The notes: a model not told the origin generated them from the letters alone. A DNA stretch of 64,000 bases from Promethearchaeota archaeon (GCA_048939625.1 JBHLPH010000004.1:32001-96000), one strand, 5' to 3'. Shown: positions 12,798 to 60,432, counted from the first letter of the stretch. A program made the numbers and translations.

Positions 12798-13580
12798 TTG
12801 TCAGATGTAAAACCCTTTATGCTCGCCAAACTCACCTGGGAAGAAGCCAAAGCCCTCTTCGAAGAAACAGACATCGCCATCATTCCCGTCGGTTCCCAAG
12901 AGCAACATGGCCCGGCACTTCCGCTTGATAATGATGCCTTTCAAGCTCAAGAGTTTGCTTACCTTGTTGCGGATAAGCTTTGGCCAAAAATCAAAACCGC
13001 AATTGCACCCCTTATCTCCTATGGCGTCTCGCCTCATCATATGCCCTTTTCTGGCACCATCACCCTCCGACACGAGACCTTTATCGACCTGATTGTGGAT
13101 GTTGGAAAAAGTCTTGCACAGCACGGTGCAAAGAAAATCATCGTCATGAATAGCCATGGAGGCAACACAGCAGCCTTATCCATAGCTCTTCGAAAGCTTC
13201 ATGATGAGGAAAGTTTGTGGTGTGTGGGCATCGAATGGTGGAAAATCACTAGCGATTTAGTAAAAGAAACCTTTGAACCACCCCATTTCCATGCAGATGA
13301 AATGGAAACCTCCGTTGCCTGGGCTCTTGGGCAACGAGTGCTCGAAGACAAGCGCGTGGATGAACCCGGTCGCGAACCAATTCCCGGATTTACTAAAGCT
13401 ACTATGTTTCCCCCGCAACCCCACATCATGCCCATCTGGGATACTACTGACTTTACTGATTCGGGCACAATTGGGTATGCAACACGTGCTGACCCGAAAA
13501 AAGGTCAGAAAATTGTGGATGAGGCGATTAACCGCATTAGCGCATTTATCGAAAAAGTCGCTAAAACGAAAAAGAGCTAA
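12798..13580 (+). CDS. Creatininase family amidohydrolase
   Basis: PVGSQEQHGPALPLDND, NSHGGN, HADEMETS. Confidence 0.9.
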   Translation: MSDVKPFMLAKLTWEEAKALFEETDIAIIPVGSQEQHGPALPLDNDAFQAQEFAYLVADKLWPKIKTAIAPLISYGVSPHHMPFSGTITLRHETFIDLIVDVGKSLAQHGAKKIIVMNSHGGNTAALSIALRKLHDEESLWCVGIEWWKITSDLVKETFEPPHFHADEMETSVAWALGQRVLEDKRVDEPGREPIPGFTKATMFPPQPHIMPIWDTTDFTDSGTIGYATRADPKKGQKIVDEAINRISAFIEKVAKTKKS

Positions 13581-45653: not shown

Positions 45654-47339
45654 ATGAAAAAAACAATCACTCGTGCAAATAAGGTTCATGTAATTCTCAC
45701 CCTAAAATCTAAAAGTGGAAAATCTCTGTTTAAAAAGAAAAAACTCCTTCATGAAGATTTCAAAGATTATGATCCTCACCCTGATTCAATGAATGCAGTG
45801 ATTACCTGGCTCAAAAAAGATGATTGCAAGATTACAGCAAAGGGTTATTTTAGCCTAGCTTTCACTGCGTCAAAATCCTTTGTCGATAAATACTTTGACG
45901 GAGGAAAAGCAATTCCCGTCGAGTTGAAAGAACATGTGGAAAAGAGTGTATTGTCACCAATTTGGAAACTGAGAAACGCAGAACCAACTCCCCCTAGACT
46001 TGATCCTGGTGAACTTTCAGTACCGTCCCCAATCGCTGAACTGGTAAATGCAGATAGTAAACATAGAGAAGGAATTGTTGGAAGAGGAGTGCATGTTGTT
46101 GTAGTTGATACAGGCTTTTGGACTCTTAATCACCCCCAATTTCATCCTTATTATAATGCCACACTTAAGGATCAAGTGCGGAAGCAAATTGACGTTATAC
46201 CTTTGAGAACCGAGTGGGACAAAGCAGAAGACTGGCTTTCTCATGGAACAGCTCTCTGTTCTACACTATTTGCGGTTGCGCCAGGGATTAGACTCACCAT
46301 GATTAAGACAGCAAGTGTTTCAAGTGTTGTTCCAGCAACAGGAGAACCCATTGATAGCGAGGGGCCGTATATTGTTGAGGGGATTTTGAAAGCAATTCAG
46401 TTGGAAGACCAGGCGGATATTCTGTTGGTTTGTGCAGGACCAAATGAGAAGGATGTGGATAGGAATGGAGAGGAGAGAAGAATAGTGGAGCTTGCTTTAA
46501 TCACACTAATTAATCGAGGAGTTGTTGTTATCTTTCCATCTGGAAATTATGTATGGGAAACCGAGGATGGTCAAAGAATCGATGAAGGTGTTGTCGTGTG
46601 GCCTTCAACTCATCCAGATGTAATTTCTGTTGGTGGGGCTTCTCCCCCAGGAATAGCTGGTCCAGCTAATAAAGGGTGGTTTGCTTCACCTGTTGCATCG
46701 AGTGGTGAATCAGTGTTATACCCTCCTCGCCATGTCCCAGATATTTGCGGCTTGTGTGGAAATCTCATACGAGTAGCTGTACCAAATGGCCAAGGTGGCA
46801 CACTTCAGGTTGGTGTAATGAAACCATTCATTGCAGTTCCAGTTCAGTATCAAAGTACTGATGATTTAATGCGGGTTCGTGATGCAACAGCCTTACCTCC
46901 TGTACTTGCTGACGGTTGGACTGTTAGTAACGGAACATCGCTTGCGGCGCCAATGGTTGCTGGCGTCGTTGCTTTAATGCTGCAAATCATTAATGACGCA
47001 GTTGGGTCATTACCGAGTACTTTTCGATCCAGTTATCGAACCCTTTTATCAAGATCTGATAAAAATAAATTATCTTGGAACTCGGTTCGGGCATTCTTTC
47101 CAGGACTTATAAAGAAGATATTACAGAAGACTGCATATGATGTTAAAGAGGGAATAAGTGCTAATCTTGAAGCAGCTAGGCAAAATGAAGATCCTGCAAC
47201 CGGTGTAGGACTCGTTGATGCTAAAAAGGCTTGTAATTTCCTTTCTGTAAATAGTATTTTGAATTTATTAAGGACTGATCCAACAATAATGCACCCCTAT
47301 TTAGGAAGTTTTAGGCTTCCTGATGATTTCTTCCACTGA
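45654..47339 (+). CDS. S8 subtilase-family serine protease
   Basis: VVDTG (Asp), HGT (His), SGN (oxyanion), GTSLAAP (Ser); no obvious signal peptide. Confidence 0.9.
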   Translation: MKKTITRANKVHVILTLKSKSGKSLFKKKKLLHEDFKDYDPHPDSMNAVITWLKKDDCKITAKGYFSLAFTASKSFVDKYFDGGKAIPVELKEHVEKSVLSPIWKLRNAEPTPPRLDPGELSVPSPIAELVNADSKHREGIVGRGVHVVVVDTGFWTLNHPQFHPYYNATLKDQVRKQIDVIPLRTEWDKAEDWLSHGTALCSTLFAVAPGIRLTMIKTASVSSVVPATGEPIDSEGPYIVEGILKAIQLEDQADILLVCAGPNEKDVDRNGEERRIVELALITLINRGVVVIFPSGNYVWETEDGQRIDEGVVVWPSTHPDVISVGGASPPGIAGPANKGWFASPVASSGESVLYPPRHVPDICGLCGNLIRVAVPNGQGGTLQVGVMKPFIAVPVQYQSTDDLMRVRDATALPPVLADGWTVSNGTSLAAPMVAGVVALMLQIINDAVGSLPSTFRSSYRTLLSRSDKNKLSWNSVRAFFPGLIKKILQKTAYDVKEGISANLEAARQNEDPATGVGLVDAKKACNFLSVNSILNLLRTDPTIMHPYLGSFRLPDDFFH

Positions 47340-47567: not shown

Positions 47568-48539
47568 ATGGACCTCATCGACAAACAAATTATTTTCGAG
47601 CTTCTGATTAGTTATCGCGCCTCGTACCAAGCTATCGCAGAAAAACTCAATTTATCTGTCAATGCTGTTAAAAAACGATTTGAGAAGTTAAAAAATGTTG
47701 GGATAATCCGCGGTGGAGTTTTAGTTCCAATGCCAGTGATGAAAGGAACTGAAGATTGGCTGGCATTATTACGAATGGATGAAGCTACAGCTTCAGATGA
47801 CAGTCTAGAAAAAATTGGGTCTCACGTACTAGTTCAATCGGGAAGCCTTCTGACAGATGGAAGCATCCTCTGTTTCGGGTTCTATGGCGGAGCACAAGAT
47901 CTTCAGGAGATAGGGGCTTTTCTCCGCCAAGTTCAAGGTGTCAAATCTGTGGAATTTCATACAATTCTAGCACCACAAGGAAAGAAGACTGATTTGGCGA
48001 AGAACGATGTAAAGGTACTCCGATGTCTTCGGGAAGCCCCCCGAATCCCGATTAGCAAAATTACTGAAAAAACAGGTATAAATTCAAGACGAGTTCGGAA
48101 TATTCTGCAAAAATTAATTGGAGAAAACGGAGTCGAACCGATCTATTATATTAATTGGAAATCTCAAGGAAAAACTCATCCGAATGATGTTAGTTTCTTA
48201 GTGAGAGTTCATTGGAACCTAAATGCGGGTGGTTATACTGCCTTTATGATTCAGATTCGACACAAGGAAGGTGTGGAAGAAAGGAAAAAAATTACTGATA
48301 TTCTGACAGATAATTATTCTTTCGAGTTTTGGTATGCCTATGCTTCTGCATTTGAGCCCGTGATATTCTGTGTGTTCTTGGTTGAGCACATGAGGGATTC
48401 GATAGAAATTGTAAAAACAGTAGAGCAGATTCCTCAAGCAGTTGAGGTGTATCCGATTTTCGGGTATCCTACGAAGGTTTTTCGTAGTCAGGTTGATGAT
48501 TATTTTGAAGGAATTTTCGAGAATATTGATCAGTACTGA
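47568..48539 (+). CDS. Tandem Lrp/AsnC-type wHTH regulator (paralogue 1)
   Basis: 'MDLIDKQIIFEL..YRASYQAIAEKLNLSVNAVKKR' plus second HTH 'DVKVLRCLREAPRIPISKI'. Confidence 0.85.
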   Translation: MDLIDKQIIFELLISYRASYQAIAEKLNLSVNAVKKRFEKLKNVGIIRGGVLVPMPVMKGTEDWLALLRMDEATASDDSLEKIGSHVLVQSGSLLTDGSILCFGFYGGAQDLQEIGAFLRQVQGVKSVEFHTILAPQGKKTDLAKNDVKVLRCLREAPRIPISKITEKTGINSRRVRNILQKLIGENGVEPIYYINWKSQGKTHPNDVSFLVRVHWNLNAGGYTAFMIQIRHKEGVEERKKITDILTDNYSFEFWYAYASAFEPVIFCVFLVEHMRDSIEIVKTVEQIPQAVEVYPIFGYPTKVFRSQVDDYFEGIFENIDQY

Positions 48540-48640
48540 TGTATTTTGGAGTGATAATTGTAATTTCCGAATATGAAGTGCCTAGTAATTAGAGCTCTGT
48601 CCCTGGCTTCAAGGTATATGGGGTTTACAATTGTGTAAGA

Positions 48641-48717
48641 GGAAAGCCGGGCCCTGGTTGTCCACCGGTGCCCCAGAGGCCCGACACGCCGTTTGTCGAA
48701 CCTCAGGTCCGGTTTCC
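48641..48717 (-). other. Structured 3' RNA element A
   Basis: Minus strand GGAAACCGG...CCGGCTTTCC closing stem; inner 11-bp hairpin GAGGTTCGACA/TGTCGGGCCTC with two G.U pairs. Confidence 0.65.
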
Positions 48718-48725
48718 ACCCATCC

Positions 48726-48869
48726 TCAGCGAATCATAAGCGGAAGTGCCTGTTCGAGACGTGGACCTGCTCGGGGATTGGTTCGACATCCAGCAAATAA
48801 TCGCTCTGCACAGGTCATGCGAGCGACGTGAGCGTGATGATGAAGTTTCCGAGCGGTTTTCTTCTTCAT
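48726..48869 (-). CDS. Basic peptide A, 47 aa (three-member family)
   Basis: MKKKTARKLHHHAHVARMTCAERLFAGCRTNPRAGPRLEQALPLMIR; GGAGG upstream; aligns with peptides B and C. Confidence 0.75.
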   Translation of the reverse strand: MKKKTARKLHHHAHVARMTCAERLFAGCRTNPRAGPRLEQALPLMIR

Positions 48870-48921
48870 GTTGCGTGTACCTCCAAGGTTGTGTTTAACG
48901 AAACAGGGATACGGAAAATTA

Positions 48922-49004
48922 GATATGAATCGATGGGAGCCAATGAGTGCAAGAACAAGCAAAATGAGCAGTATTAATGCCTCATTTTGCACAATGTAGT
49001 GTAA
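48922..49004 (-). promoter_or_regulatory. Conserved promoter box and palindromic operator, unit A
   Basis: Minus TTGCACT-N5-GCTCCCATCGA-TTCATATC; plus TTGCAC-AATGTA-GTGTAA at 48987-49004. Confidence 0.75.
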
Positions 49005-49053
49005 AGTTCGAAAAATACTGCTTCAGAATATGAATAGAGGTATCTTGTAGTTG

Positions 49054-49398
49054 TTAGATCCAGCCACGGAATTTGGCCAGAATCCACAGAATAGCAAAAG
49101 GAGCGATAACCATAAGTTCAATTTGTAAAACAATAATGAAATCCCCTACAGAGGTAGAACCATAGATACTAGAAGTGGCCACCCCACAGAAGAACGCATT
49201 ATACCAAACGAAACACATATCAACTATTGTGAAAAGCGCGGCGAGTGTTCCACCCAGATCAAAAAGCCGACACCCTTTATTCTTCAGGATACTGAAAATT
49301 TGATAAAGTCTTAAGCGAGAATCCTGTGCTTTTCGGGTCGCATTCTGTAAAGTAACAGGTTTGGAACCATTTGGTTTCTGATTATTAGGGAAAGCCAT
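49054..49398 (-). CDS. Hypothetical two-TM protein (start MAFPNN)
   Basis: GGAG before ATG 49398; two hydrophobic segments. Confidence 0.5.
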   Translation of the reverse strand: MAFPNNQKPNGSKPVTLQNATRKAQDSRLRLYQIFSILKNKGCRLFDLGGTLAALFTIVDMCFVWYNAFFCGVATSSIYGSTSVGDFIIVLQIELMVIAPFAILWILAKFRGWI

Positions 49399-49772
49399 TT
49401 TTGTTCTCCATCCAATTTCGTTGAATTCACCCGAAGACCCGTTCGGGCGTTTCATGCCATTAAAGGTTGATTTTACATATCAATCAATGGGAATTAAATC
49501 ATGCAAAAAAATCGAAGCTACTTAAGGAAAAACTCCTTTTTTTGCGATAGGGGGTTCAAAAAAAGAATCTATCTGCTATTAATTTCCATTTGATTAATCT
49601 AAGAGGTTCAAAAGTACTAACCATCTTCTTTTTGGAGCAGTTTAATAAAATGTGAATACTGCTTCTTCTTTAGGCAATTGCAGGAAAAAAAGTCGCTTAT
49701 CTTGAATTTCAGAATCTAATGTGTTAAGGCTTATAAGGGATTAGAGAGGTTTAGCAGTCGGAGGGTTAAACC

Positions 49773-49901
49773 CTGTCATCAACGTGGTTAAACAATCCTT
49801 GGCTGATTGTTCAAGACCCCGGATTTCCCATAATGACGACTATCCTGATTCTCGTGATTATTATCTTAATCATTGAAATCTATAAAGTCAGGAAGGATTA
49901 G
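49773..49901 (+). CDS. Small single-TM peptide P2, up to 42 aa, apparent CTG start (ATG at 49833 gives 22 aa)
   Basis: LSSTWLNNPWLIVQDPGFPIMTTILILVIIILIIEIYKVRKD; TTATAA about 30 bp before GGAGG at 49760-64. Confidence 0.55.
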   Translation: MSSTWLNNPWLIVQDPGFPIMTTILILVIIILIIEIYKVRKD

Positions 49902-49943
49902 GTATTCGGGATTCTGATTCGAATTAGTCATATAGGGAACCAC

Positions 49944-49978
49944 GGGAGTTTTATCAACTCCCTCTCCCTCCTTTTTTT
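49944..49978 (+). terminator. Hairpin plus T-run after P2
   Basis: GGGAGTT-TTATC-AACTCCC, then pyrimidine tract ending in T7. Confidence 0.5.
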
Positions 49979-50115
49979 CAATAGGTTCGAGGTTTTTTCA
50001 AACTAAAATTGCCTTTGAATCCAGAGAAGCGAAGATAGTGAGTTTTCCCATATGAAAATAAATAGAATAAAGATTACCAATATCAGGATTTGAATTTAGA
50101 CCTTGAGGGAGAATC

Positions 50116-53100
50116 ATGAGTAGATTTCCTTTGGGCTTAAGTTACGTATTTATTATCATTTTAATTTGCCCTTCAATCCTAATGCAACCATATTCACCAT
50201 TGCTTCTTGAAGACTATCCCTATAGTACTCCGAAAGACGCGGAATTTTGTACAGAACCACTAGCTTCCGCACATTTATCTACCTCTAAGCGAGCTTTGCC
50301 TATTCAGGGTGGTTCTTGGGTACAATTTCATTCTGAAGCAGAAATCGGGGGAGAGCCAGAGATAACACTTCTTTCGTCAGATACGATCCGATTAGTAGTC
50401 TTACTAGAGTGCCCAGGAATGTGGCGAGATGACATTATATTAAATCATACTGTGTATGACAGACTTGAAATCATTTCAGCAGAGTCAACCGCCGATGTTG
50501 GTAATCCGAACATCCCTGTTCTGACAAAGATGCTAGAAGTTCCTTATGACATTGATGTTTCAGTCGAACTTCTCGATTCAGAATATCAGGATTTATCGGA
50601 TTACCATATTGCACCTAGGCAAGAGTTAGTTTATCCTACTCCATCAATAACGTACCCAAGATTCTTCATTAACACAACAGTCTATAACCAGAATTCGTTT
50701 TATCCAACCTCACTGACTTGGATTGAAGGAAGTCTAGCAGCGAATCCCATTGTAATCCGTGGCCATCGAATAATCACATTGCACTTAGCTCCACTCCAAT
50801 TTAACCCAGATAGACATATTTGTCGAGTATTTTCAAAGATCAAAGTGGCTGTACGATTTGCCCGACCAGCAGCAATTGAACCAATAAGTTCTCGGCTTCA
50901 GAGCTCGGCTTTTGAGGGAATATTAGAGAATTATCTTCTGAATTATCCTCATGGATTTTACAGCGGACTCTCAACATTACAGAATACTACTCCTTGGATT
51001 CCTCCGATTTGGACAATTCTCCCACCGTCAAAACAGATGCCCACGAGCGGATGCGAGTATCTTATTATTTCCCATGATGATTTTGTCGAGAAAGTTAGAC
51101 CATTAGCAAACTGGAAGATTCAGAAAGGCATAACGACAAAACTCATTTCGATTACTGGGGTTTTTAATGAGTTAAACTGGGTAGTAACGTCTGATCCAGA
51201 TACTATTAGGAGTGCAGTTTCAGAATACATTCAGTGGGCATACAATAGCTGGGATTTAGTACCAACTTATGCCCTCCTTGTTGGAGATGAAGCACATATT
51301 CCTCCACATTATATGACAATTCATCCACAGTATCTTACATTGAGTCCAACGGACTTAGGATACTTTCAGCTCGATGGACCCGATTATCTCCCGGAAATGC
51401 TGCATGGGCGACTTTCCGTTGACTCTGATACTCAAGCTGAAACCTTTGTCAATAAAATTCTTCAATACGAACAGAATGGCGTAACTGATCCAACGGGTAA
51501 TTTTTATAACAGAATCTGCGCTAGCGCATACTTCCAAGATAGAGATAATAATGGACAAGAAGATCCTGCATTTCGTCTAACTCAAACTGCTGAAAAGTTT
51601 CGAGAGTATGTAACCTCACGTTCGAATCCTTATGATGTGGACTATTTCTATGTTGCAGGAGCGTACAACTTGGACCCCTTTGCCATTACTCCCTCAACCT
51701 ATGAAGATGGAACACCCCTTGATTCAAGTTTAGCAGGCCATGATTGGTTCCATCATTTTACACAAGCACAGAATGTCATCGATACAATCAACCTTGGATC
51801 GTTTTTGCTATTCAATCTTGGCCATGGAGAATCGCGGAATTTTTACCGTCAATCGAATGGCACTTTTGGTCCATTTGATGGTTGGCAGTATCCACCCTTT
51901 GTAACAGACCAGTTTCACCTGTTGACAAACGGAGACAAACTACCCGTAGTTCTGAGTTTAGATTGTAATACAGGCTGGTTTGATGAAGCCTACGATTATA
52001 GTCCAGCAAATTACGAATCCTTCTCCGAAGAGATTACCAGAAAGGCTGGCGGTGGTGCTGTTGCAGCACTTGGGGCTTCACGGCCCGTTCAGGCACCCGT
52101 GAGCGCGTTAATGCTGGAGGGAATTGCTGATGCAATTTGGGCTGATTATGATGGAAATATCGCCACAGGTGGTTTGAATAATTTGGGACAGATCATCCAC
52201 TATAGCAAGATGCTAGTTATGGAACAATGGGGATATTTGGGTGAAGAATTGTGTTCTGTAAATACATTTGAACTCTACCACCTTTTTGGAGATCCAGAGA
52301 TGCCATTATGGACGCAAGAGCCTGAGGATCTGGAGGTTTATTATCCAACACATATTGGCATGGAGGGAGAGCAACGCTTTGTTGTCCAAGTGACTCGGAG
52401 CGGATTTCCTATTGGTTCAGCAAGAGTCTGTCTTCAAAAAGGCGGAGAGTTATATGCAGTGAATTTCACGGATTCTAGAGGTTATGCGTATTTTTCAGTT
52501 AATCCCATAACAAGTGGATCTATGAATTTGACCGTGACAGCTAAGAACCATCTTCCATATACCACAGTAATTTTCGTTACCAGTGGTGGAGGAGTTCAGT
52601 TAAGTCGAGCCTCTGGGGCTGGAGAAACCACGATTACTATCACTGGAACAAAATTTACAAGTGCTAATATGGTCCATCTCTTCATAGGAAACCCATGGGA
52701 AGAAGAGGGAAGTGGTCAGGTACCTGTGGATGGGAGAGTTGAATTCACCTATACAATTCCAAGTGAACAAACAGAACCACTGAATTTTTGGCTCCGTGAA
52801 ATCCAAGTTATAAGTATTGATCCTCCGATTATTTTCACAGTCCGTGCCGGCGTTTCCTATTACTCACCGTATTTTGAAGCTCCAGATTTGTATACCTATT
52901 GTCAATGGAATGAAGAAACATGGCATTTGAATCCTAAAGGATCATCTGCCAATGAGAATCCCTGTTGGGATAATCCTTCGATAGAGGTGAAAGATGATCA
53001 GGGAAATGTAGTTACATCAGGAAACTTACAAATTGGTTCTATCTATACTATTCATGCTGATATACACAACGCAGGACCAATTCATGCAAATAACGTCAAA

Positions 53101-53715
53101 GTGTTCTTCAACTGGTCTAGATGGGGAATTGGCCAAGTGACTTGGCATGCGATAGGAAATGACACAATTGATGTCCTGCCTTGGGGTCAGTCGATGGCTG
53201 TAATGGTCTTTGTGCCAACTGTTGAAGACATGATTTGTATTCGAGTAGCAGTATCACATCCTGAAGATAGCAATCCTTACAATGATTGGGGTGTTGAAAA
53301 CACCTTAGCACTCTTCACTCCGGACCGCATCGGCATCGAATTGCCAGTCTTCAACCCAACTTCCAGAGAAAGCCATATGTTTATCCAATTGACTCAAGAT
53401 AACATATTAGGTGCTTTGTGGACAGCATCAGTTGATCATATTTCAGATTCACAACTAGGACCAAGTGAATCAACTAATATCATAATCAGTTTCGTTATCC
53501 CAGACGATGTTAGAGAAGGTGATATGCACAATTTCACAATAAACGCCTTTATCGAACAATATATCACAGGGGGAGTCAGTATTTGTCTAACGAAAAGACC
53601 GCCTCAATTAGTGATACCATGGCACCTAATCCTCCCGCTAATTGTTTTAGTGATTATCAGTATTATCATCGTATTCGTTTTTAAGAAGCGCTTTCGAGAA
53701 AGTGATGAAAATTAG
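50116..53715 (+). CDS. Membrane-anchored C25 (gingipain-like) cysteine peptidase
   Basis: Signal-like N-terminus, propeptide ('GNPNIP','PLQFNP'), 'YLII','YALLVGD','GRL', catalytic GHG and DCNTG, 'LFGDP', Ig/CARDB-like region, C-terminal TM. Confidence 0.88.
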   Translation: MSRFPLGLSYVFIIILICPSILMQPYSPLLLEDYPYSTPKDAEFCTEPLASAHLSTSKRALPIQGGSWVQFHSEAEIGGEPEITLLSSDTIRLVVLLECPGMWRDDIILNHTVYDRLEIISAESTADVGNPNIPVLTKMLEVPYDIDVSVELLDSEYQDLSDYHIAPRQELVYPTPSITYPRFFINTTVYNQNSFYPTSLTWIEGSLAANPIVIRGHRIITLHLAPLQFNPDRHICRVFSKIKVAVRFARPAAIEPISSRLQSSAFEGILENYLLNYPHGFYSGLSTLQNTTPWIPPIWTILPPSKQMPTSGCEYLIISHDDFVEKVRPLANWKIQKGITTKLISITGVFNELNWVVTSDPDTIRSAVSEYIQWAYNSWDLVPTYALLVGDEAHIPPHYMTIHPQYLTLSPTDLGYFQLDGPDYLPEMLHGRLSVDSDTQAETFVNKILQYEQNGVTDPTGNFYNRICASAYFQDRDNNGQEDPAFRLTQTAEKFREYVTSRSNPYDVDYFYVAGAYNLDPFAITPSTYEDGTPLDSSLAGHDWFHHFTQAQNVIDTINLGSFLLFNLGHGESRNFYRQSNGTFGPFDGWQYPPFVTDQFHLLTNGDKLPVVLSLDCNTGWFDEAYDYSPANYESFSEEITRKAGGGAVAALGASRPVQAPVSALMLEGIADAIWADYDGNIATGGLNNLGQIIHYSKMLVMEQWGYLGEELCSVNTFELYHLFGDPEMPLWTQEPEDLEVYYPTHIGMEGEQRFVVQVTRSGFPIGSARVCLQKGGELYAVNFTDSRGYAYFSVNPITSGSMNLTVTAKNHLPYTTVIFVTSGGGVQLSRASGAGETTITITGTKFTSANMVHLFIGNPWEEEGSGQVPVDGRVEFTYTIPSEQTEPLNFWLREIQVISIDPPIIFTVRAGVSYYSPYFEAPDLYTYCQWNEETWHLNPKGSSANENPCWDNPSIEVKDDQGNVVTSGNLQIGSIYTIHADIHNAGPIHANNVKVFFNWSRWGIGQVTWHAIGNDTIDVLPWGQSMAVMVFVPTVEDMICIRVAVSHPEDSNPYNDWGVENTLALFTPDRIGIELPVFNPTSRESHMFIQLTQDNILGALWTASVDHISDSQLGPSESTNIIISFVIPDDVREGDMHNFTINAFIEQYITGGVSICLTKRPPQLVIPWHLILPLIVLVIISIIIVFVFKKRFRESDEN

Positions 53716-53783
53716 GATTTTTCAATAAGTGGAAAGAAAACAAATGTGCCATACTCTATTTATAGTCGTGAAGACCACAGAGT

Positions 53784-53799
53784 GTGGATTCGGACCTTT
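53784..53799 (+). promoter_or_regulatory. 16-bp motif GTGGATTCGGACCTTT upstream of regulator 2
   Basis: Identical copy at 54982-54997; both end 83-86 bp before the MD start codon. Confidence 0.6.
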
Positions 53800-53872
53800 A
53801 GGGCGTTCTACAAGCAGAATGGAGTAAATTAGTGATTTAAGTTCTCCATATGACCTCAACATATACCTTAAC

Positions 53873-54850
53873 GTGATTGTTATGGATCTGGTTGACAAGA
53901 ACATTGTGTTCGAGCTTTCCGTCAATTATCGTGCTTCATATCAGACGATTGCCAAGAAACTAAATCTTTCTGTGAATGCTGTCAAGAAACGTATTGAGAA
54001 ACTAAAGGAGAGTGGAATAATTCGGGGAGGTTTATTACTTCCAATGAATGCAATGTTGGGGATGGAAGATTGGATAGCCATTTTGCATACTAAAAACCCC
54101 ACCCCTTCAAGTAATTTTCTTGACACATTGGGAAAACATCCATTGATGACTGCCGCAAGTATTCTTACAGATGGAAGTATTTTGTGCCATGGGAGTTACT
54201 CAGGAGCATATGGTCTTCGAGATATTGGATCGTTTTTACGGCAGATACCTGAAGTGGACTCTGTAGATTTTCATACACTTCTCTCTGTGCCAGGGAAACG
54301 TTGTGAATTATCAACTGCTGACTTGAAAGTCCTGAGATGTCTCTACGAAGAGCCTCGAATTTCTATTATAGATATTTCTAAAAAAACTGGCCTTAGTCCT
54401 CGCCGGATTCGAATGAGCATACACGAATTAATAGGTGAAAACGGCTCCGAACCGGCTCTATACTTGGAGTGGGAGCCGAGGGGTGGTTCTCGTCCTGAAG
54501 AGGTTAGTTTTAAGGTTTCAATTCACTGGGATTTGAATGCTGGTGGATATACGGCATTCATTATGATGATTCGACACGAAGAGGGGAGTGTGTCACAGTC
54601 TAAGATTGTTAGAATGTTAAAAGAACAGTATCCAATGGATTTTTGGTATGCATATGCCTCGGCGTTTGAGCCTGTGATTTTTTGTATTTTTGTCGTTGAA
54701 CACTTACGAGACGCTACAAACATTGCAAATACGATTCGGAAAATCCCTGAAGCGATTACTGCAAATACGATTTTTGGTTATCCAACTAAACGATATCGAA
54801 GTCCTATTGATGACTATTTTGAAGAACTTTTCAAGCAGATCGACGACTAA
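53873..54850 (+). CDS. Tandem Lrp/AsnC-type wHTH regulator (paralogue 2; likely start 53882)
   Basis: Same two-HTH layout; shared 'LNAGG', 'FWYAYASAFEPVIF'. Confidence 0.85.
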   Translation: MIVMDLVDKNIVFELSVNYRASYQTIAKKLNLSVNAVKKRIEKLKESGIIRGGLLLPMNAMLGMEDWIAILHTKNPTPSSNFLDTLGKHPLMTAASILTDGSILCHGSYSGAYGLRDIGSFLRQIPEVDSVDFHTLLSVPGKRCELSTADLKVLRCLYEEPRISIIDISKKTGLSPRRIRMSIHELIGENGSEPALYLEWEPRGGSRPEEVSFKVSIHWDLNAGGYTAFIMMIRHEEGSVSQSKIVRMLKEQYPMDFWYAYASAFEPVIFCIFVVEHLRDATNIANTIRKIPEAITANTIFGYPTKRYRSPIDDYFEELFKQIDD

Positions 54851-54981
54851 TTAGGGTTTTCACAACCTAATCGCTTTCCCTTCATTTTGCTTTACGTCTA
54901 ATTTGATACTGATGTCATCAGTAGTTAGGGGGTCCTTTTAGGTGAGCCGAACAAATTTTATGCTTTAAAATAGTGGTGTAA

Positions 54982-54997
54982 GTGGATTCGGACCTTT
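54982..54997 (+). promoter_or_regulatory. 16-bp motif GTGGATTCGGACCTTT upstream of regulator 3
   Basis: Identical to 53784-53799. Confidence 0.6.
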
Positions 54998-55073
54998 GAG
55001 ACAGCATTGGGTGGTTTTGTTAAGACAATACAGTCTTCAAGCTACTATCCTGCTAGCTGCAAAAAGGCATTAA

Positions 55074-56054
55074 GTGGTGGCAATGGACGCCGTGGACAAG
55101 AACATCATTTTCGAGCTATCGACAAACTATCGTGCTTCATATCAGGCTATTGCTAAGAAAATGGATCTTTCAGTGAATGCTGTTAAGAAGCGAATTGAGA
55201 AACTCAAAGAAAGTGGAGTAATTCGGGGTGGGTTATTACTTCCTATGAGGGCAATGTTGGAGATGGATGATTGGGTTGCCTTATTACGCACTGAAGATCC
55301 AATTCCTTCTGATCAGTTTCTTGATGTTATTGGGGCACATCGGTTAGTGGGATCTGCGAGTATTCTTACGGATGGTAGTATTTTGTGTTTTGGGTGGTAC
55401 CCTGGCTCTTCAGGGCTTGAGGAAATTGGTACATTCTTGCGTTCAACTCCTGGTGTTGAGTCGGTGGAATTTCATACGATTCTTGCGGATCCTGGGAAGC
55501 GCTGCGAGTTGTCTGTATCTGACGTGAAGGTGCTTCGATGTTTGCATAAAGAGCCACGGATGTCAATTAGTGATATTTCTAATGAAACGCGCCTTACGCC
55601 CCGCCGTATTCGGAAAATCATTGATGCGTTAATTGGTGAAAATGGTTCAGAGTCCAATATCTATTTGAATCACCCGTCCAGAGGGGGGAAGCGACCAGAA
55701 GAGGTATGCTTTCAACTAAGTTTGCGTTGGAATTTGAATGCTGGGGGACATACCGCATTTGTAATTATAATTCGCCATGAAGAGGGGGCCCAACCCCGTT
55801 CAAAGATTGTGGATATTCTCAAGGAGAACTTTCCGGTGAAATTTTGGTATGCGTATGCATCAGCCTTTGAGCCGGTGATTTTTTCTGTGTTCGTGGTTGA
55901 GCATATGCGCGAAGCCAGTGAAATCATTGAGACAATTCGTAAGACGCCTGAAGCGATTTCAGCGAATGCAATCTATGGATATCCTTCACGAATATTTCAC
56001 AGTCCCATAGATGATTACTTCGAAAAGCTCTTCAAACGACTAGAAAGAGACTAA
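55074..56054 (+). CDS. Tandem Lrp/AsnC-type wHTH regulator (paralogue 3; likely start 55083)
   Basis: Close paralogue of 53873..54850. Confidence 0.85.
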   Translation: MVAMDAVDKNIIFELSTNYRASYQAIAKKMDLSVNAVKKRIEKLKESGVIRGGLLLPMRAMLEMDDWVALLRTEDPIPSDQFLDVIGAHRLVGSASILTDGSILCFGWYPGSSGLEEIGTFLRSTPGVESVEFHTILADPGKRCELSVSDVKVLRCLHKEPRMSISDISNETRLTPRRIRKIIDALIGENGSESNIYLNHPSRGGKRPEEVCFQLSLRWNLNAGGHTAFVIIIRHEEGAQPRSKIVDILKENFPVKFWYAYASAFEPVIFSVFVVEHMREASEIIETIRKTPEAISANAIYGYPSRIFHSPIDDYFEKLFKRLERD

Positions 56055-56088
56055 AGCAGTGAAAGTTTTGACATAAGGAAAAGGTCTG

Positions 56089-56865
56089 TTAGAGGTCCCA
56101 ATCATATTTTGTGAAGAAGAAAGGATAACAGTCATCAGGTTTGAGTTCTTCAAGAGTTTCAGCAGGTAATAACCAGATATCAGTCTGAGAAGTGTAAGCA
56201 GCTGTTGTGACTTCGAGAACTGGGATTTCATGAATTGGATCATCGAGGGACTTGTTGAGTTTAAGCTCACCGGGTCCGATTTCAATTGGCCCGTAATTGA
56301 TTTTGTTAAGTAAACGGAGTAGTCGAGGATGGTTATCGACGGAAATGCCATCTATACCGGGGAAAGCTTTGAGCAGAAACCAAGGAGTTGCACTAAAGGC
56401 TTCTGGGAAGGGAGTCTGCATGATTGCTTTAATTTCGATTATAGGGATACCATGGCGGGTACACACACCATGTACAGCATTTCCTTTGCGTGTGAGCGTG
56501 ATTGAATCTGCGATTTTTTTGGGAAATCCATATAATTCACGTCCTGCGGCCATAGCGAGATCATTATCAACGGGCATGGCGAGGCAATAGCTTCCCTGTT
56601 CATTATTATATTGGACTTGCACGGAGAGTGCGGCTTCGTTGTAGGGAGCAATGAAGTTAGGTTCGAGAAATTCCGCGACATATGCTGTTCCTAGCGCTTC
56701 GGGGGAGGGTTCCAGTGGAGGGGGAATTATGCGTTTAATGACTTGGAGGTCAGTTTTGAAAATTACCATTAACATGTTGACCTTACCGAGGAGGAAGCCC
56801 TGTGCAAATTTCTTGCTTCGCTTTTTGAGGTCGTCTCGGGAGTGGACTAAACTCATTATAGACAC
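56089..56865 (-). CDS. Acetoacetate decarboxylase (Adc) family protein
   Basis: 'IIPPPLEP', 'PYNEAAL', Schiff-base motif 'AGRELYGFPKK'. Confidence 0.88.
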   Translation of the reverse strand: MSIMSLVHSRDDLKKRSKKFAQGFLLGKVNMLMVIFKTDLQVIKRIIPPPLEPSPEALGTAYVAEFLEPNFIAPYNEAALSVQVQYNNEQGSYCLAMPVDNDLAMAAGRELYGFPKKIADSITLTRKGNAVHGVCTRHGIPIIEIKAIMQTPFPEAFSATPWFLLKAFPGIDGISVDNHPRLLRLLNKINYGPIEIGPGELKLNKSLDDPIHEIPVLEVTTAAYTSQTDIWLLPAETLEELKPDDCYPFFFTKYDWDL

Positions 56866-56876
56866 CGGTTTGTATT

Positions 56877-57677
56877 CTAAGCTGGCTTTGTATTAAAGCG
56901 CTTAGTGTGTCGGTGTCGAAAAACAAAAGTAATTCCGAAAAGGATGACTAGCAATAAAACTCCAAGTCCTAGCCAAAACAGTGTTGTGTAGTTTTGTTCT
57001 TCGAGAGAAAGAATTCCTAAGGTATGGAAGTTGCTGGCTGTTAGTTCACGTGTGACGCGATATGTGTAGATTGCGTGTTGAGAGGCGAGGAGCTCGTAGG
57101 TATACTTGAGAAGAATTCCCTCCGTGTAGTGGAAGTACCAGTTTTCGCTACATTGTTGAAAATCGTCATCAATCGAAAACCATGCAACTGATTGGACTCG
57201 CCAACAGAGAAAGGTTCCGAATTCAAGAGAGATGTAGCTTGATGTGAGAGGGTAATTCCCTGTATACGGGGAGAAAGCCACAGAATGCCCATGGTGCCAT
57301 CTGGAAGTATTGACCCAAAGTGGAGGTTGGAGAGGTCTTTCAAGCAAAGTTCCATTTAATAATATGATTCGCCATGTTGAACTATTGAGGAACATTTCCC
57401 CCTGCAATATATCCTCGTTAGTGGACGAGATATTGATGAGGAAAAGCGAGTTACGTTGCACTGATGTTGCCGATTGGATTGTGAACTGTTCATCCCATTC
57501 ACCCTGCAGGTCATCAGTTACATGGTAGTTGAGAAAAAGCCCAGTGGGTAAAGATGCAAGCCTAGTCGGGATAGAAATTAAGAATGACAGTAATATGACG
57601 AATAACACAAACCGAATTCGTTTCTTTCTTAAAATCCTCATCGTGAACCCTTCAGTGTCAAAGATTGGCATGGGCAA
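56877..57677 (-). CDS. Hypothetical surface protein with N- and C-terminal TM
   Basis: Two terminal hydrophobic helices; 'WYFHYTEGILLKY'. Confidence 0.65.
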   Translation of the reverse strand: MPMPIFDTEGFTMRILRKKRIRFVLFVILLSFLISIPTRLASLPTGLFLNYHVTDDLQGEWDEQFTIQSATSVQRNSLFLINISSTNEDILQGEMFLNSSTWRIILLNGTLLERPLQPPLWVNTSRWHHGHSVAFSPYTGNYPLTSSYISLEFGTFLCWRVQSVAWFSIDDDFQQCSENWYFHYTEGILLKYTYELLASQHAIYTYRVTRELTASNFHTLGILSLEEQNYTTLFWLGLGVLLLVILFGITFVFRHRHTKRFNTKPA

Positions 57678-58635
57678 TCATTTCATCAATCATTGATTCG
57701 CGTAATCCAACATATTTTCGGAGAGGAAAGCTGACCCAAATCTCAACCTTCGAGATATTAGGTGCTTTTCGTATCACGGGAAGGATTTTTTCGGATTCAC
57801 GAATGTGGTTTACAATGAAGACACAATAGATAATCGGTTCAGTGGCAGCAACAAAGGAAAACCAGAATTCGAAGGGGAAGTGGCTTTTGAAGTATTGGAC
57901 AACTCCTTCAGGAGATCCTTTGCCTTCTTCCCAGTTAGTTCGAACAACAAACGCATTACCGCCTCCTGCATTAAGGTCCCAGTAGATGCGAAAATGTAAG
58001 GCAGCTTTGGATTGGCTAATTTCCGGTTTGTATTCTTTATCAACAAGAGTTTCGATGGGAGTTCCAACCTTGCCATGAAAGTCTTGGATGACGCTGCGAA
58101 TGCGTCGAGGTGTTAAACCAGTTTGCTCTGAAATTTGTGAGATAGGCATCCGTGCATCCTCTCGTAGAGATCGGAGGACTTTCAAATGTCCGTCTGTCAT
58201 AGGAATTTTTTGACCACGATCTGCAATGAGAGTGTGAATTTCAACGTTCGCGACGCCTGGCAGTTGGCGAAGAAATCCACCGAGTTCAGATAGACCTTGT
58301 GCTCCGATATATTCTGCGAAGACGAGGATGGATCCATCAGAAAGATAACCAGCACTGAAAACGGATGGATGTGCACCTATGCGGTCTAGAAATTCTGGAC
58401 TGAAATGGGTGTCGCTAAGAGTGATTCGGGCAAGGAACCATTCAGCGTCCATCATGGCTAGACTGAGATACACATAATATCGTTGGATAACTCCTTCTTC
58501 TTCCAGTTTCAATATTCTTTTCTTCACAGCGTTCACTGTAAGGTCTAGCCGAGTTGCGATTGTTTGATAAGTGACTCGACAGTTGGTTGCGAGTTCGAGA
58601 AGAATGCTTTTGTCTACAATATCCAATGGAGGCAC
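57658..58635 (-). CDS. Tandem Lrp/AsnC-type wHTH regulator (paralogue 4, more divergent)
   Basis: 'LDIVDKSILLEL..NCRVTYQTIA..LDLTVNAVKKR', 'WDLNAGG', 'FWFSFVAATEPI'. Confidence 0.85.
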   Translation of the reverse strand: MPPLDIVDKSILLELATNCRVTYQTIATRLDLTVNAVKKRILKLEEEGVIQRYYVYLSLAMMDAEWFLARITLSDTHFSPEFLDRIGAHPSVFSAGYLSDGSILVFAEYIGAQGLSELGGFLRQLPGVANVEIHTLIADRGQKIPMTDGHLKVLRSLREDARMPISQISEQTGLTPRRIRSVIQDFHGKVGTPIETLVDKEYKPEISQSKAALHFRIYWDLNAGGGNAFVVRTNWEEGKGSPEGVVQYFKSHFPFEFWFSFVAATEPIIYCVFIVNHIRESEKILPVIRKAPNISKVEIWVSFPLRKYVGLRESMIDEMIAHANL

Positions 58636-58815
58636 CTTATCTTGGGGGTTGACCTGAATTGGCTGTTCTCGGATATATTTACGAGGAATGGCGAAGCTAG
58701 TCTTTGGATTCTCCGTTGTCAGGAATTCAGCGAGATATAATTCGTAAGCACTCCGGTTTAATCCTTTTGAAATGTAGCATGCCTTTTGAATGCCCTAATA
58801 AAAAATAAATAAAAA

Positions 58816-58940
58816 AGCCGGGTCTTCAGGGTATCCTTCCCCTCCATTTCGGCACTTCCCGGTCCGTGCGCATGGGTGGCAATGGACCATTTTGGACAAC
58901 GGATTCGGAGTTTTCGTCCGGTTACCGAGAAGACCCGGCT
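58816..58940 (-). other. Structured 3' RNA element B (125 nt) followed by U-tract
   Basis: Perfect 12-bp closing stem AGCCGGGTCTTC/GAAGACCCGGCT, inner GGAC/GTCC and GGTCC/GGACC hairpins, then TTTTTATTTATTTTTT. Confidence 0.7.
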
Positions 58941-59000
58941 AAGGTCAGCGTCCAAGGTCCGTGTCACTGGTGTGTCAGTGTCGATCCCTAGTAATCATGA

Positions 59001-59123
59001 TTAGCGTCGTGAAGTTACGACAGCAAAGGTGATTCGGTCTCGTGGAGTGCCTTTGGGGTTTTTCGCACCGGTAACAGCGCGTTCTGCAAGGGCCATTTTG
59101 GCAATTTTCTTTTTCGGAGCCAT
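59001..59123 (-). CDS. Basic peptide B, 40 aa (three-member family; not in ORF track)
   Basis: MAPKKKIAKMALAERAVTGAKNPKGTPRDRITFAVVTSRR; GGTGA upstream. Confidence 0.8.
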   Translation of the reverse strand: MAPKKKIAKMALAERAVTGAKNPKGTPRDRITFAVVTSRR

Positions 59124-59175
59124 TTTTGTTCACCGTCCCGCCGATGCGAGACAATGATACCTAACCCGAAAATTG

Positions 59176-59260
59176 CATATTATTCGATGGGAGCTTGTCA
59201 GTGCAAAAATCCGACAAAAAGAGAGAGAGTGTGCCAACTTTTGCACTAAGTGGTGCAAAA
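59176..59260 (-). promoter_or_regulatory. Conserved promoter box and perfect palindromic operator, unit B
   Basis: Minus TTGCACT-N5-GCTCCCATCGA-ATAATATG; TTTTGCAC-TAAGTG-GTGCAAAA at 59239-59260. Confidence 0.8.
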
Positions 59261-59298
59261 ATCAGGAACGCACCCTGAAAAGGACTTGGGTGGGAGTA

Positions 59299-59423
59299 AA
59301 CCGGGCCTACGAAAGCTCCCGACCACAAGAACCACGAAATTAGATCACCCGTTGCTGAATCGCTACTGCGCCGATTCCCCAGCAACAGGAAGAGGAACAA
59401 GTGGCGGTTGTGTAGGCCCGATT
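59299..59423 (-). other. Structured 3' RNA element C (125 nt)
   Basis: Closing stem AATCGGGCCTAC/GTAGGCCCGGTT (one G.U); inner CCTGTTGCT/AGCAACGGG and GAATCG/CGATTC. Confidence 0.7.
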
Positions 59424-59481
59424 GACGTGGCTGCAAGGGGTTTTTGGTGATCGTTTCTTCACCATAGGGATTCCTCACAGC

Positions 59482-59622
59482 CTAGCGTCGGCTAAGGACC
59501 AGCATGACTGCATATCGAGTCCGAGGTTTTGCTACCGGATGGGGGTTACGGCAGCCGGCTACGGCACGTTCAGTCGCCGACATATCTGCTAGTTTCTTAT
59601 GTTTATGTTCGGATTTGGCCAT
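59482..59622 (-). CDS. Basic peptide C, 46 aa (three-member family; not in ORF track)
   Basis: MAKSEHKHKKLADMSATERAVAGCRNPHPVAKPRTRYAVMLVLSRR; GGAGG upstream. Confidence 0.8.
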   Translation of the reverse strand: MAKSEHKHKKLADMSATERAVAGCRNPHPVAKPRTRYAVMLVLSRR

Positions 59623-59697
59623 CTCAAATCCCTCCAATTGTGTGTCACCAGGATCCCTGTTGGGAATCCCAGAGCAAATACGAATCGGCGTCCGTTT

Positions 59698-59832
59698 GAT
59701 AAGAATCGATGGGAGCAGCCGAGTTCAAAATCCCGCAATTTCCACTTTTGGATTCAGAAATCTTGAACTTCGCAATGCAAAACCGAGTAAGAGGATTTGC
59801 CTTTTTGCGAATTGTTGAACTCTCAAGTGTAA
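59698..59832 (-). promoter_or_regulatory. Conserved promoter box and two phased operators, unit C
   Basis: Minus TTGAACT-N5-GCTCCCATCGA-TTCTTATC; plus TTGAAC-N6-ATGCAA (59763-80) and TTGAAC-N6-GTGTAA (59815-32). Confidence 0.75.
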
Positions 59833-59931
59833 AATTCCGTTCTTCGAGGGATTTTTGATGTGTTAGACCCGAGAGCATTTTAGCCAAGGAGATGTATTTC
59901 TAACAGTGAAACGTCGTTAATATAGTAGTGA

Positions 59932-60432
59932 ATGGAAAGCCCTTTTCTAACGAATTGGTTTGTCTGGGAAAAGAGAGTTGGAGTTGATGGCTGTATGAAT
60001 CCGTTACATGTGTTTCCTTTCAAGTATATGCAGATTATTGTCGCTTTGCTAGCTGAGGGTGAGGTAGACCTTTCGGAGATTCGGTCCTCCACTGGCATGT
60101 GTAGCTTTGATTCCACAGAAGTATCGGATATGCTAGCGTACTTGACAGGATTTGGTCGAGTTGAAGCCCAAGATGATGGTTGGGTTATACATAAAACGGA
60201 AACAAAAGCGGTCTATGAGCGATTTCGCAAGGCATTCCTCGATGATGCTGTGGCGATCCTCACGAATTTATCAACCAAGGCCAAACCGATTGAACAGTTA
60301 CAACAGAAAACTGGTCTTAGTGCAGAGAAAATAAATCTGTATTTGCCGTTCCTTGCAGACATCACTCGATTGGGTGTTATTGGACGGTGTTCAACCGAGC
60401 ACCCAACCATTTGGTGTGTCCAGTCAGAGTAG
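59932..60432 (+). CDS. Hypothetical protein, possibly tandem wHTH (likely start near 59995)
   Basis: Two similar helical repeats 'LSEIRSSTG' / 'IEQLQQKTGL'. Confidence 0.55.
   Translation: MESPFLTNWFVWEKRVGVDGCMNPLHVFPFKYMQIIVALLAEGEVDLSEIRSSTGMCSFDSTEVSDMLAYLTGFGRVEAQDDGWVIHKTETKAVYERFRKAFLDDAVAILTNLSTKAKPIEQLQQKTGLSAEKINLYLPFLADITRLGVIGRCSTEHPTIWCVQSE

Follow-up and report, generated by a model that had tools for sequence, protein, structure and literature searches.

A putative lineage-specific promoter-operator cassette defining a small regulon of micro-protein genes in a Hermodarchaeota-like Asgard archaeon

The 64,000-nucleotide stretch of DNA analysed here (the window; GCA_048939625.1, JBHLPH010000004.1:32001-96000) belongs to contig C53 in a 2.31-Mb assembly, which comprises 83 contigs, has a G+C content of 44.6% and is 88% complete. 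The host is an uncultured Asgard (Hermodarchaeota-like) archaeon of a sediment lineage: the genome carries six TFB genes and one TBP gene, which identifies it as archaeal, and close protein homologues are labelled 'Promethearchaeota archaeon' or 'Candidatus Hermodarchaeota archaeon' at NCBI. Three small peptide genes, all on the minus strand, are the subject of this analysis: peptide A (48726-48869; 47 aa, basic, with the motif ERxxAGCRxNP), peptide B (59001-59123; 40 aa) and peptide C (59482-59622; 46 aa). Each is preceded by the same arrangement of short conserved elements, referred to below as the cassette, and the locus also contains four genes of tandem Lrp/AsnC-like proteins (R1 to R4) and a gene of a 145-aa double winged-helix protein. 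An earlier note on this DNA, made from the sequence alone, had proposed that the three peptide genes share a promoter box and phased operators; it placed the start of peptide A at 48870, which is corrected here to 48869.

In units A, B and C the motif TTG(C/A)AC-N6-GCTCCCATCGA is followed directly by an AT-rich octamer, and palindromes of the type TTGCAC-N6-GTGCAA are located upstream. Unit A (48922-49004) consists of a distal palindrome with one mismatch (49004-48987), a proximal TTGCAC half-site (48952-48947) 6 nt upstream of the box (48940-48930) and the TATA-like octamer TTCATATC (48929-48922). Unit B (59176-59258) has a perfect palindrome (59258-59241), the half-site TTGCAC (59206-59201), the box (59194-59184) and the octamer ATAATATG (59183-59176). 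In unit C (59698-59832) the half-site is TTGAAC (59728-59723), followed by the box (59716-59706) and TTCTTATC (59705-59698), while the distal palindrome (59780-59763) and a third copy (59832-59815), as the earlier note had observed, contain two mismatches each. Every palindrome lies exactly 52 bp from the next site, the third copy of unit C included. All these coordinates were found to be correct on the minus strand, so that the common box, octamers and palindromes are confirmed. The distance from the box end to the ATG is 60, 60 and 83 intervening nt in A, B and C, respectively, which equals the 61, 61 and 84 bp given earlier when counted to the A of the ATG. The box GCTCCCATCGA has three exact matches in the window and five with at most one mismatch, against 0.76 expected; the 12-base palindrome pattern with at most two mismatches has a frequency of 7e-5 per genome position.

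A weaker palindrome had been reported at 49542-49559. It is present but is not an orphan: it forms the distal operator (TTGAAC-N6-TCGCAA, 49559-49542) of a fourth complete unit on the minus strand, A2 (49476-49559), which also comprises a proximal TTGCAT (49506-49501), the box variant ATTCCCATTGA (49494-49484) and the octamer TTGATATG (49483-49476), with a spacing of 53 bp. The gene downstream of A2 (49054-49398, minus strand) encodes a small hydrophobic protein without a Pfam or NCBIfam match. Its start is probably the ATG at 49398, giving 114 aa, because the alternative 133-aa frame would begin only 28 nt past the box. The orthologue of unit A2 in genome G012 scores 46.7 bits with the matrix described below.

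The genome-wide scan for the composite motif suggested in the earlier note was performed with a position matrix trained on 20 instances from other genomes only and then run over the 2.31-Mb host genome. Exactly six sites reached 15 bits or more, and all of them precede small genes: B (107.6 bits), D (81.1), A (66.6), E' (32.3), C (21.8) and A2 (16.7, at window positions 49564-49475), with D and E' located on contig C61. Units D and E' lie on either side of a tandem Lrp-like gene; the genes behind them encode an 80-aa protein, which has a membrane segment at its N-terminus, and a protein of 87 aa. Thus, the set proposed as peptide genes does contain three basic peptides of 40-47 aa, but it is wider and includes three small membrane or hydrophobic proteins as well. 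Matches to the palindrome only (C9:213100, C28:29682, C34:145827, C29:49694, C19:65216 and window 13114-13131) fall within long open reading frames (ORFs) and were rejected as chance occurrences, the functional sites being therefore those tied to the cassette. The last of these matches is a perfect TTGCAC-N6-GTGCAA within a 260-aa ORF (12798-13580) and has no cassette nearby; it is probably also due to chance.

Conservation was assessed in 19 family genomes and in 381 other genomes of the phylum. The motif GCTCCCRTCGAWW occurs 29 times in the family genomes against 7 times for the reversed control, and 24 of these instances have the full architecture. TTGMAC-N6-GCTCCCRTCGA was found 22 times against none for its reversed control in the same 19 genomes, and it is confined to this genus. 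When the box variants GTTTCCATCGA, ACTCCCATCGA, TCTCCCATCGA, GTTGCCATCAA and GCTCCCCTTGA were allowed, 13 further units were recovered, including two in the host genome and three in a sister genus, which brings the total to about 37. The palindrome, which was not used in choosing the 24 instances, is found at the expected offset in 23 of them, with no more than two mismatches. The operator spacing corresponds to whole helical turns, being 52 bp in 19 of the 24 units and 53 bp in the other five; the exact 52-bp phasing claimed earlier therefore holds for A, B and C, but not across the genus, nor for A2. Conservation also extends to a run of T at -25 to -23, a C at -19, TT at -15/-14, an A at -1 and W-T-N-A-T-A-T-S at +11 to +18. 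In the sister genus, a B-like locus has retained the palindrome together with its 52-bp spacing, as well as TTGCAC-N6-GCT, while its box differs (GCTAAGGCGTA). The exact operator pair was detected in 11 of the 19 family genomes, in none of the 381 other genomes and in none of the controls, and the full cassette is present in an NCBI Hermodarchaeota assembly (GCA_048885965.1). In the sister genus, peptide homologues of genomes G015, G017 and G018 (L044-L046) have a leader of about 100 nt and carry a different palindrome, AGTCAC-N5/6-GTGAC, just 5' of the TATA-type sequence CTTATATAC.

The peptide genes are paralogous and some of their leaders are clearly homologous (ACACAATTGGAGGGAT), which might suggest that the shared sequences are non-functional leftovers of recent gene duplication. 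This is scarcely credible. Between paralogous classes identity reaches 0.80 in the palindrome arms, compared with 0.27-0.36 in the spacers and far upstream, and this contrast rules out simple duplication remnants; conserved islands (0.80-0.96) stand amid spacers at background identity, the spacing of the operators is constant to within 1 bp, the same cassette precedes unrelated genes (units A2, D and E'), and it persists in two genera. It is likewise very improbable that the palindrome acts as an RNA hairpin, for instance in the termination or processing of the transcript upstream. Although it is able to form an 8-bp stem with a 6-nt loop and, in arrays, comes right after the preceding gene (A2 to A, C to B), it keeps a fixed distance from the promoter that follows it and not from the gene before it. 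No T-run follows it, and the terminator at unit B is a separate T-rich tract. In units D and E' the palindrome is located in a divergent intergenic region, and its arms are conserved in sequence rather than covarying. Taken together, islands at fixed spacing, shared by paralogous promoters in about a dozen genomes, support well the view, drawn from sequence comparison, that the cassette defines a small co-regulated set.

The nature of the octamer is indicated by a peptide paralogue on contig C29, which has no cassette but has a leader homologous to that of C2-type units. In an ungapped alignment from the ATG, the canonical TTTTATAC of this paralogue coincides with the cassette octamer TTCATATC. 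The exact alignment supports the earlier reading of the AT-rich box as a TATA box, albeit a degenerate one, and places the 11-nt box at the position of the TFB-recognition element (BRE). Derivation of a genome-wide TATA consensus from k-mers gave no informative outcome. Archaeal transcription starts about 26 nt downstream of the TATA centre; this would put the proximal half-site at about -50 and the palindrome at about -90 to -105, both of them 5' of the core promoter.

BREs of other archaea are short, purine-rich and of the CGAAA type. The 11-nt box is C-rich, and its only likeness to them is the 3' end TCGA(A/T). The box might be an extended BRE recognised by one of the six TFBs, the TTGCAC sites forming a separate control layer. 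This alternative is compatible with the regulatory reading of the cassette as a whole, but it is judged unlikely. In its favour, the box abuts the TATA-like octamer exactly at the BRE position; the genome encodes six TFB paralogues, each with two cyclin repeats (contigs C9, C38, C12, C3 and C45), against a single TBP (C34); and the wholesale change of the box between genera, with the operators kept, is expected if the box is read by a different protein. However, the box never occurs at a promoter that lacks the TTGCAC half-site, the sole partial exception being a degenerate copy on contig C59; its length and C-rich composition differ from those of known archaeal BREs, and its first bases stay in the register of the second arm of the palindrome. 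A tandem Lrp-like gene (C45:39454-40008) and the TFB gene on C45 (38039-38581) are about 1 kb apart.

The regulated peptides belong to a family with the consensus ERAxAGCRNPHP...SRR, for which only 23 matches or clusters, nearly all of them small proteins, were found among 1.8 billion representative proteins. An orthologue of peptide A lies behind the same cassette in genome G014. The host genome encodes six paralogues, three of which lack the cassette: C29:53352-53489 (minus), C3:38846-38983 (plus) and C59:10482-10634 (minus). Two of these have an ordinary strong TATA box, and the C59 paralogue is preceded by the degenerate box GCTCCCGTGAATATATG but has no TTGCAC half-site. The leader of peptide B (59121-59160, minus strand) forms a strong hairpin (59160-59128; -18.6 kcal/mol, z -5.9), which occludes the ribosome-binding site, GGUGA, contained in the 3' arm. 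Judged by eye, this stem seems to be kept in orthologous leaders by changes on both sides, and the hairpin may serve translational control. The hairpin described earlier in the leader of unit C does form, but its fold is no better than that of shuffled sequence (z -0.17). No Rfam match was found in window positions 48300-60100, and a scan for promoters and terminators of the bacterial type, models that are irrelevant to an archaeon, gave a background level of hits.

Downstream of peptide B, a GC-rich 3' element on the minus strand (window 58790-58940) ends in CCCGGC and is followed by T6 A T3 A T6. This T-rich tract (approximately 58815-58790) looks like an archaeal terminator, indicating that unit B is monocistronic; each of the peptide units is monocistronic. 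Co-transcription of R4 with peptide B was considered and rejected, since the long T-rich tract separates them. Genes of an S8 subtilase (45654-47339) and of a 1199-aa gingipain-like peptidase of family C25 (50116-53715) are found among the peptide units and the regulators.

The four neighbouring genes had been described as encoding tandem Lrp-like regulators, and domain matches, a family profile and a structural model show the proteins to be tandem Lrp/AsnC-like: R1 (47568-48539, plus strand, convergent with unit A), R2 (53873-54850, plus), R3 (55074-56054, plus) and R4 (57658-58635, minus, downstream of unit B with the T-rich terminator between them). These proteins of 323-326 aa contain two HTH_AsnC domains per chain (PF13404 and PF13412, E 1e-13 to 1e-21), and over positions 1-130 the family profile matches solved Lrp/AsnC regulators (PH0061, 6.7e-11, and also LrpA and FL11). 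An AlphaFold2 model of R4 (predicted local distance difference test, pLDDT, 87; predicted template-modelling score, pTM, 0.82) contains two winged helix-turn-helix (wHTH) domains and two RAM-like units, with beta-alpha-beta-beta-alpha-beta after each wHTH. The RAM domain gave no match to Pfam PF01037 in R1-R4, but it is recognised in the Lrp profile alignment and in the model. Basic recognition helices, (S/T)VNAVKKR and TPRRIR, are conserved among the four proteins. The host genome encodes ten full-length paralogues, and the family is found across Asgard lineages; a related-locus search of genome contigs with R4, and with its orthologue from genome G003, returned no match.

In the host genome each of the six cassette units has a tandem Lrp-like gene within 1.1 kb; across the genus, such a gene adjoins 17 of the 24 units within the flanks examined. 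Chance adjacency amounts to about 2% per locus, and three independent loci are involved. From this adjacency, which is the basis of the link, we infer that the regulators might be the tandem Lrp/AsnC-like proteins beside every unit, with about an even chance.

Several points weigh against the proposed regulation and against these proteins as its agents. The instances in different genomes are partly orthologous and hence not independent. The best full-length structural match of R4 is an enzyme, the siroheme decarboxylase NirDL (template-modelling score 0.56-0.58, 11% identity), while Lrp regulators match one half of R4 at about 22% identity in structure comparison, so DNA binding by R4 is not assured. 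The site is 18 bp long with a central N6 that is neither conserved nor A/T-rich, and thus departs from the classical Lrp site. A near-perfect palindrome would be a more natural target for a symmetric homodimer than for a chain whose two recognition helices differ; homodimer prediction for R4 yielded a score of 0.02, which is evidence neither way. The paralogue beside D and E' has SSKTIRSR as its first helix instead of SVNAVKKR, though the operators look alike, and homologues in the sister genus keep helices of the R4 type, while a different palindrome precedes other peptide genes there.

The cassette might itself be real but be read by another trans-acting factor, for which the best candidate is the 145-aa double winged-helix protein (59995-60432, plus strand), encoded divergently from unit C. 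The ORF corresponds to 166 aa and is called as 145 aa in public collections. This possibility is rather unlikely on the whole. The gene is single-copy and adjoins the B/C locus in at least six genomes (G001, G004, G007, G013, G014 and the NCBI Hermodarchaeota assembly), and a divergent arrangement is classic for a regulator and its target; its product, with 56-76% identity, is more conserved than the tandem proteins, contains three invariant cysteines (Cys36, Cys132 and Cys141) suggestive of a sensing role, and as a homodimer would fit the symmetric palindrome. On the other hand, it adjoins just one of the three cassette loci in the host genome. The model of the protein is of moderate confidence (pLDDT 73), no solved structure matches it below E 1e-3, and its top structural matches are generic tandem winged helices (ESCRT-II, ScpB), not DNA-specific regulators. 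Homologues are also encoded by genomes labelled Thorarchaeota, in which the operator pair was not detected. In a Hermodarchaeota assembly, the neighbours of the 145-aa gene are a gene of the tandem Lrp type, a peptide gene driven by the cassette and a gene for an S8 peptidase.

Overall, the favoured explanation, to which a probability of about 0.7 is assigned, is a lineage-specific archaeal promoter-operator cassette that would define a small regulon. Its four elements are a putative weak TATA box matching W-T-N-A-T-A-T-S, the 11-nt box, which occupies the BRE position and reads GCTCCC[A/G]TCGA in this genus, one TTGCAC half-site that precedes the box by 6 bp, and the 18-bp palindrome TTGCAC-N6-GTGCAA in a register of 52-53 bp, or five helical turns, further upstream. 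A winged-helix regulator is proposed to occupy both sites on the same DNA face, cooperatively via looping or wrapping, and thereby to control how TBP and TFB are recruited to the weak core promoter. At least six genes, encoding the three 40-47-aa basic peptides and the three small membrane or hydrophobic proteins, would be driven in this way in the host genome. Activation is slightly favoured over repression, because both sites are situated 5' of the core promoter, the TATA box of which is degenerate in comparison with that of the unregulated paralogue.

A more specific version of this scheme, regarded as distinctly improbable, is that a tandem Lrp chain reads asymmetric DNA, with one winged helix on TTGCAC and the other on the GCTCCC box, while two chains pair like domains on the upstream palindrome, bridging five turns and setting the regulator against TFB and TBP. 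If true, this type of promoter control would be new to descriptions of Asgard archaea, and it would govern lineage-restricted basic micro-proteins. The cassette is in any case sharply defined and testable, with two sites, a fixed helical phase, few candidate regulators and a six-gene regulon. It provides material for a first biochemical study of a regulator family that has expanded in this lineage, and may help to explain an unannotated family of basic peptides of 40-50 aa.

No account of such a cis-regulatory element in Asgard archaea was found in the literature searched. Among better known proteins, NirDL (PDB 4CH7), a fused tandem Lrp/AsnC-like protein, resembles R4 in having two wHTH and alpha/beta units in one chain. 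R4 differs from it in sequence, as noted above, and is closer in sequence to true Lrp regulators; the NCBIfam AhbB model gives 15.7 bits against a cut-off of 125, there are ten paralogues per genome, and a haem-pathway context is absent. Archaeal upstream-activator promoters, such as those activated by Ptr2 of Methanocaldococcus jannaschii, offer another parallel: an Lrp-family protein binds upstream of a sub-optimal TATA box and aids the recruitment of TBP, as may be the case here, but the sequence and spacing of the sites differ from those of the cassette.

The closest parallels are the Lrp arrays of Sulfolobales, namely those of Ss-LrpB at its own gene and porDAB and of BarR at the barR-aminotransferase region, where binding is cooperative and the DNA is wrapped or deformed (PMC4046817; PMC10201364). 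As in these arrays, several semi-palindromic sites with a half-site of the TTGCA...TGCAA type are spaced by whole helical turns on the 5' side of an archaeal promoter, and the gene of a candidate regulator adjoins the targets. The Ss-LrpB site, however, is the 15-bp TTGCAAAATTTGCAA with an A/T-rich centre (PMC4046817), whereas that of the cassette is 18 bp long with an unconserved 6-bp centre, and the BarR sites are parted by 15-17 bp spacers, in contrast to the site-to-site distance of 52-53 bp found here. Unlike in both systems, the proximal site of the cassette combines one half-site with an unrelated box, and each candidate regulator is a single chain with two Lrp units. It is thus a new, lineage-restricted example of a phased-operator archaeal promoter.

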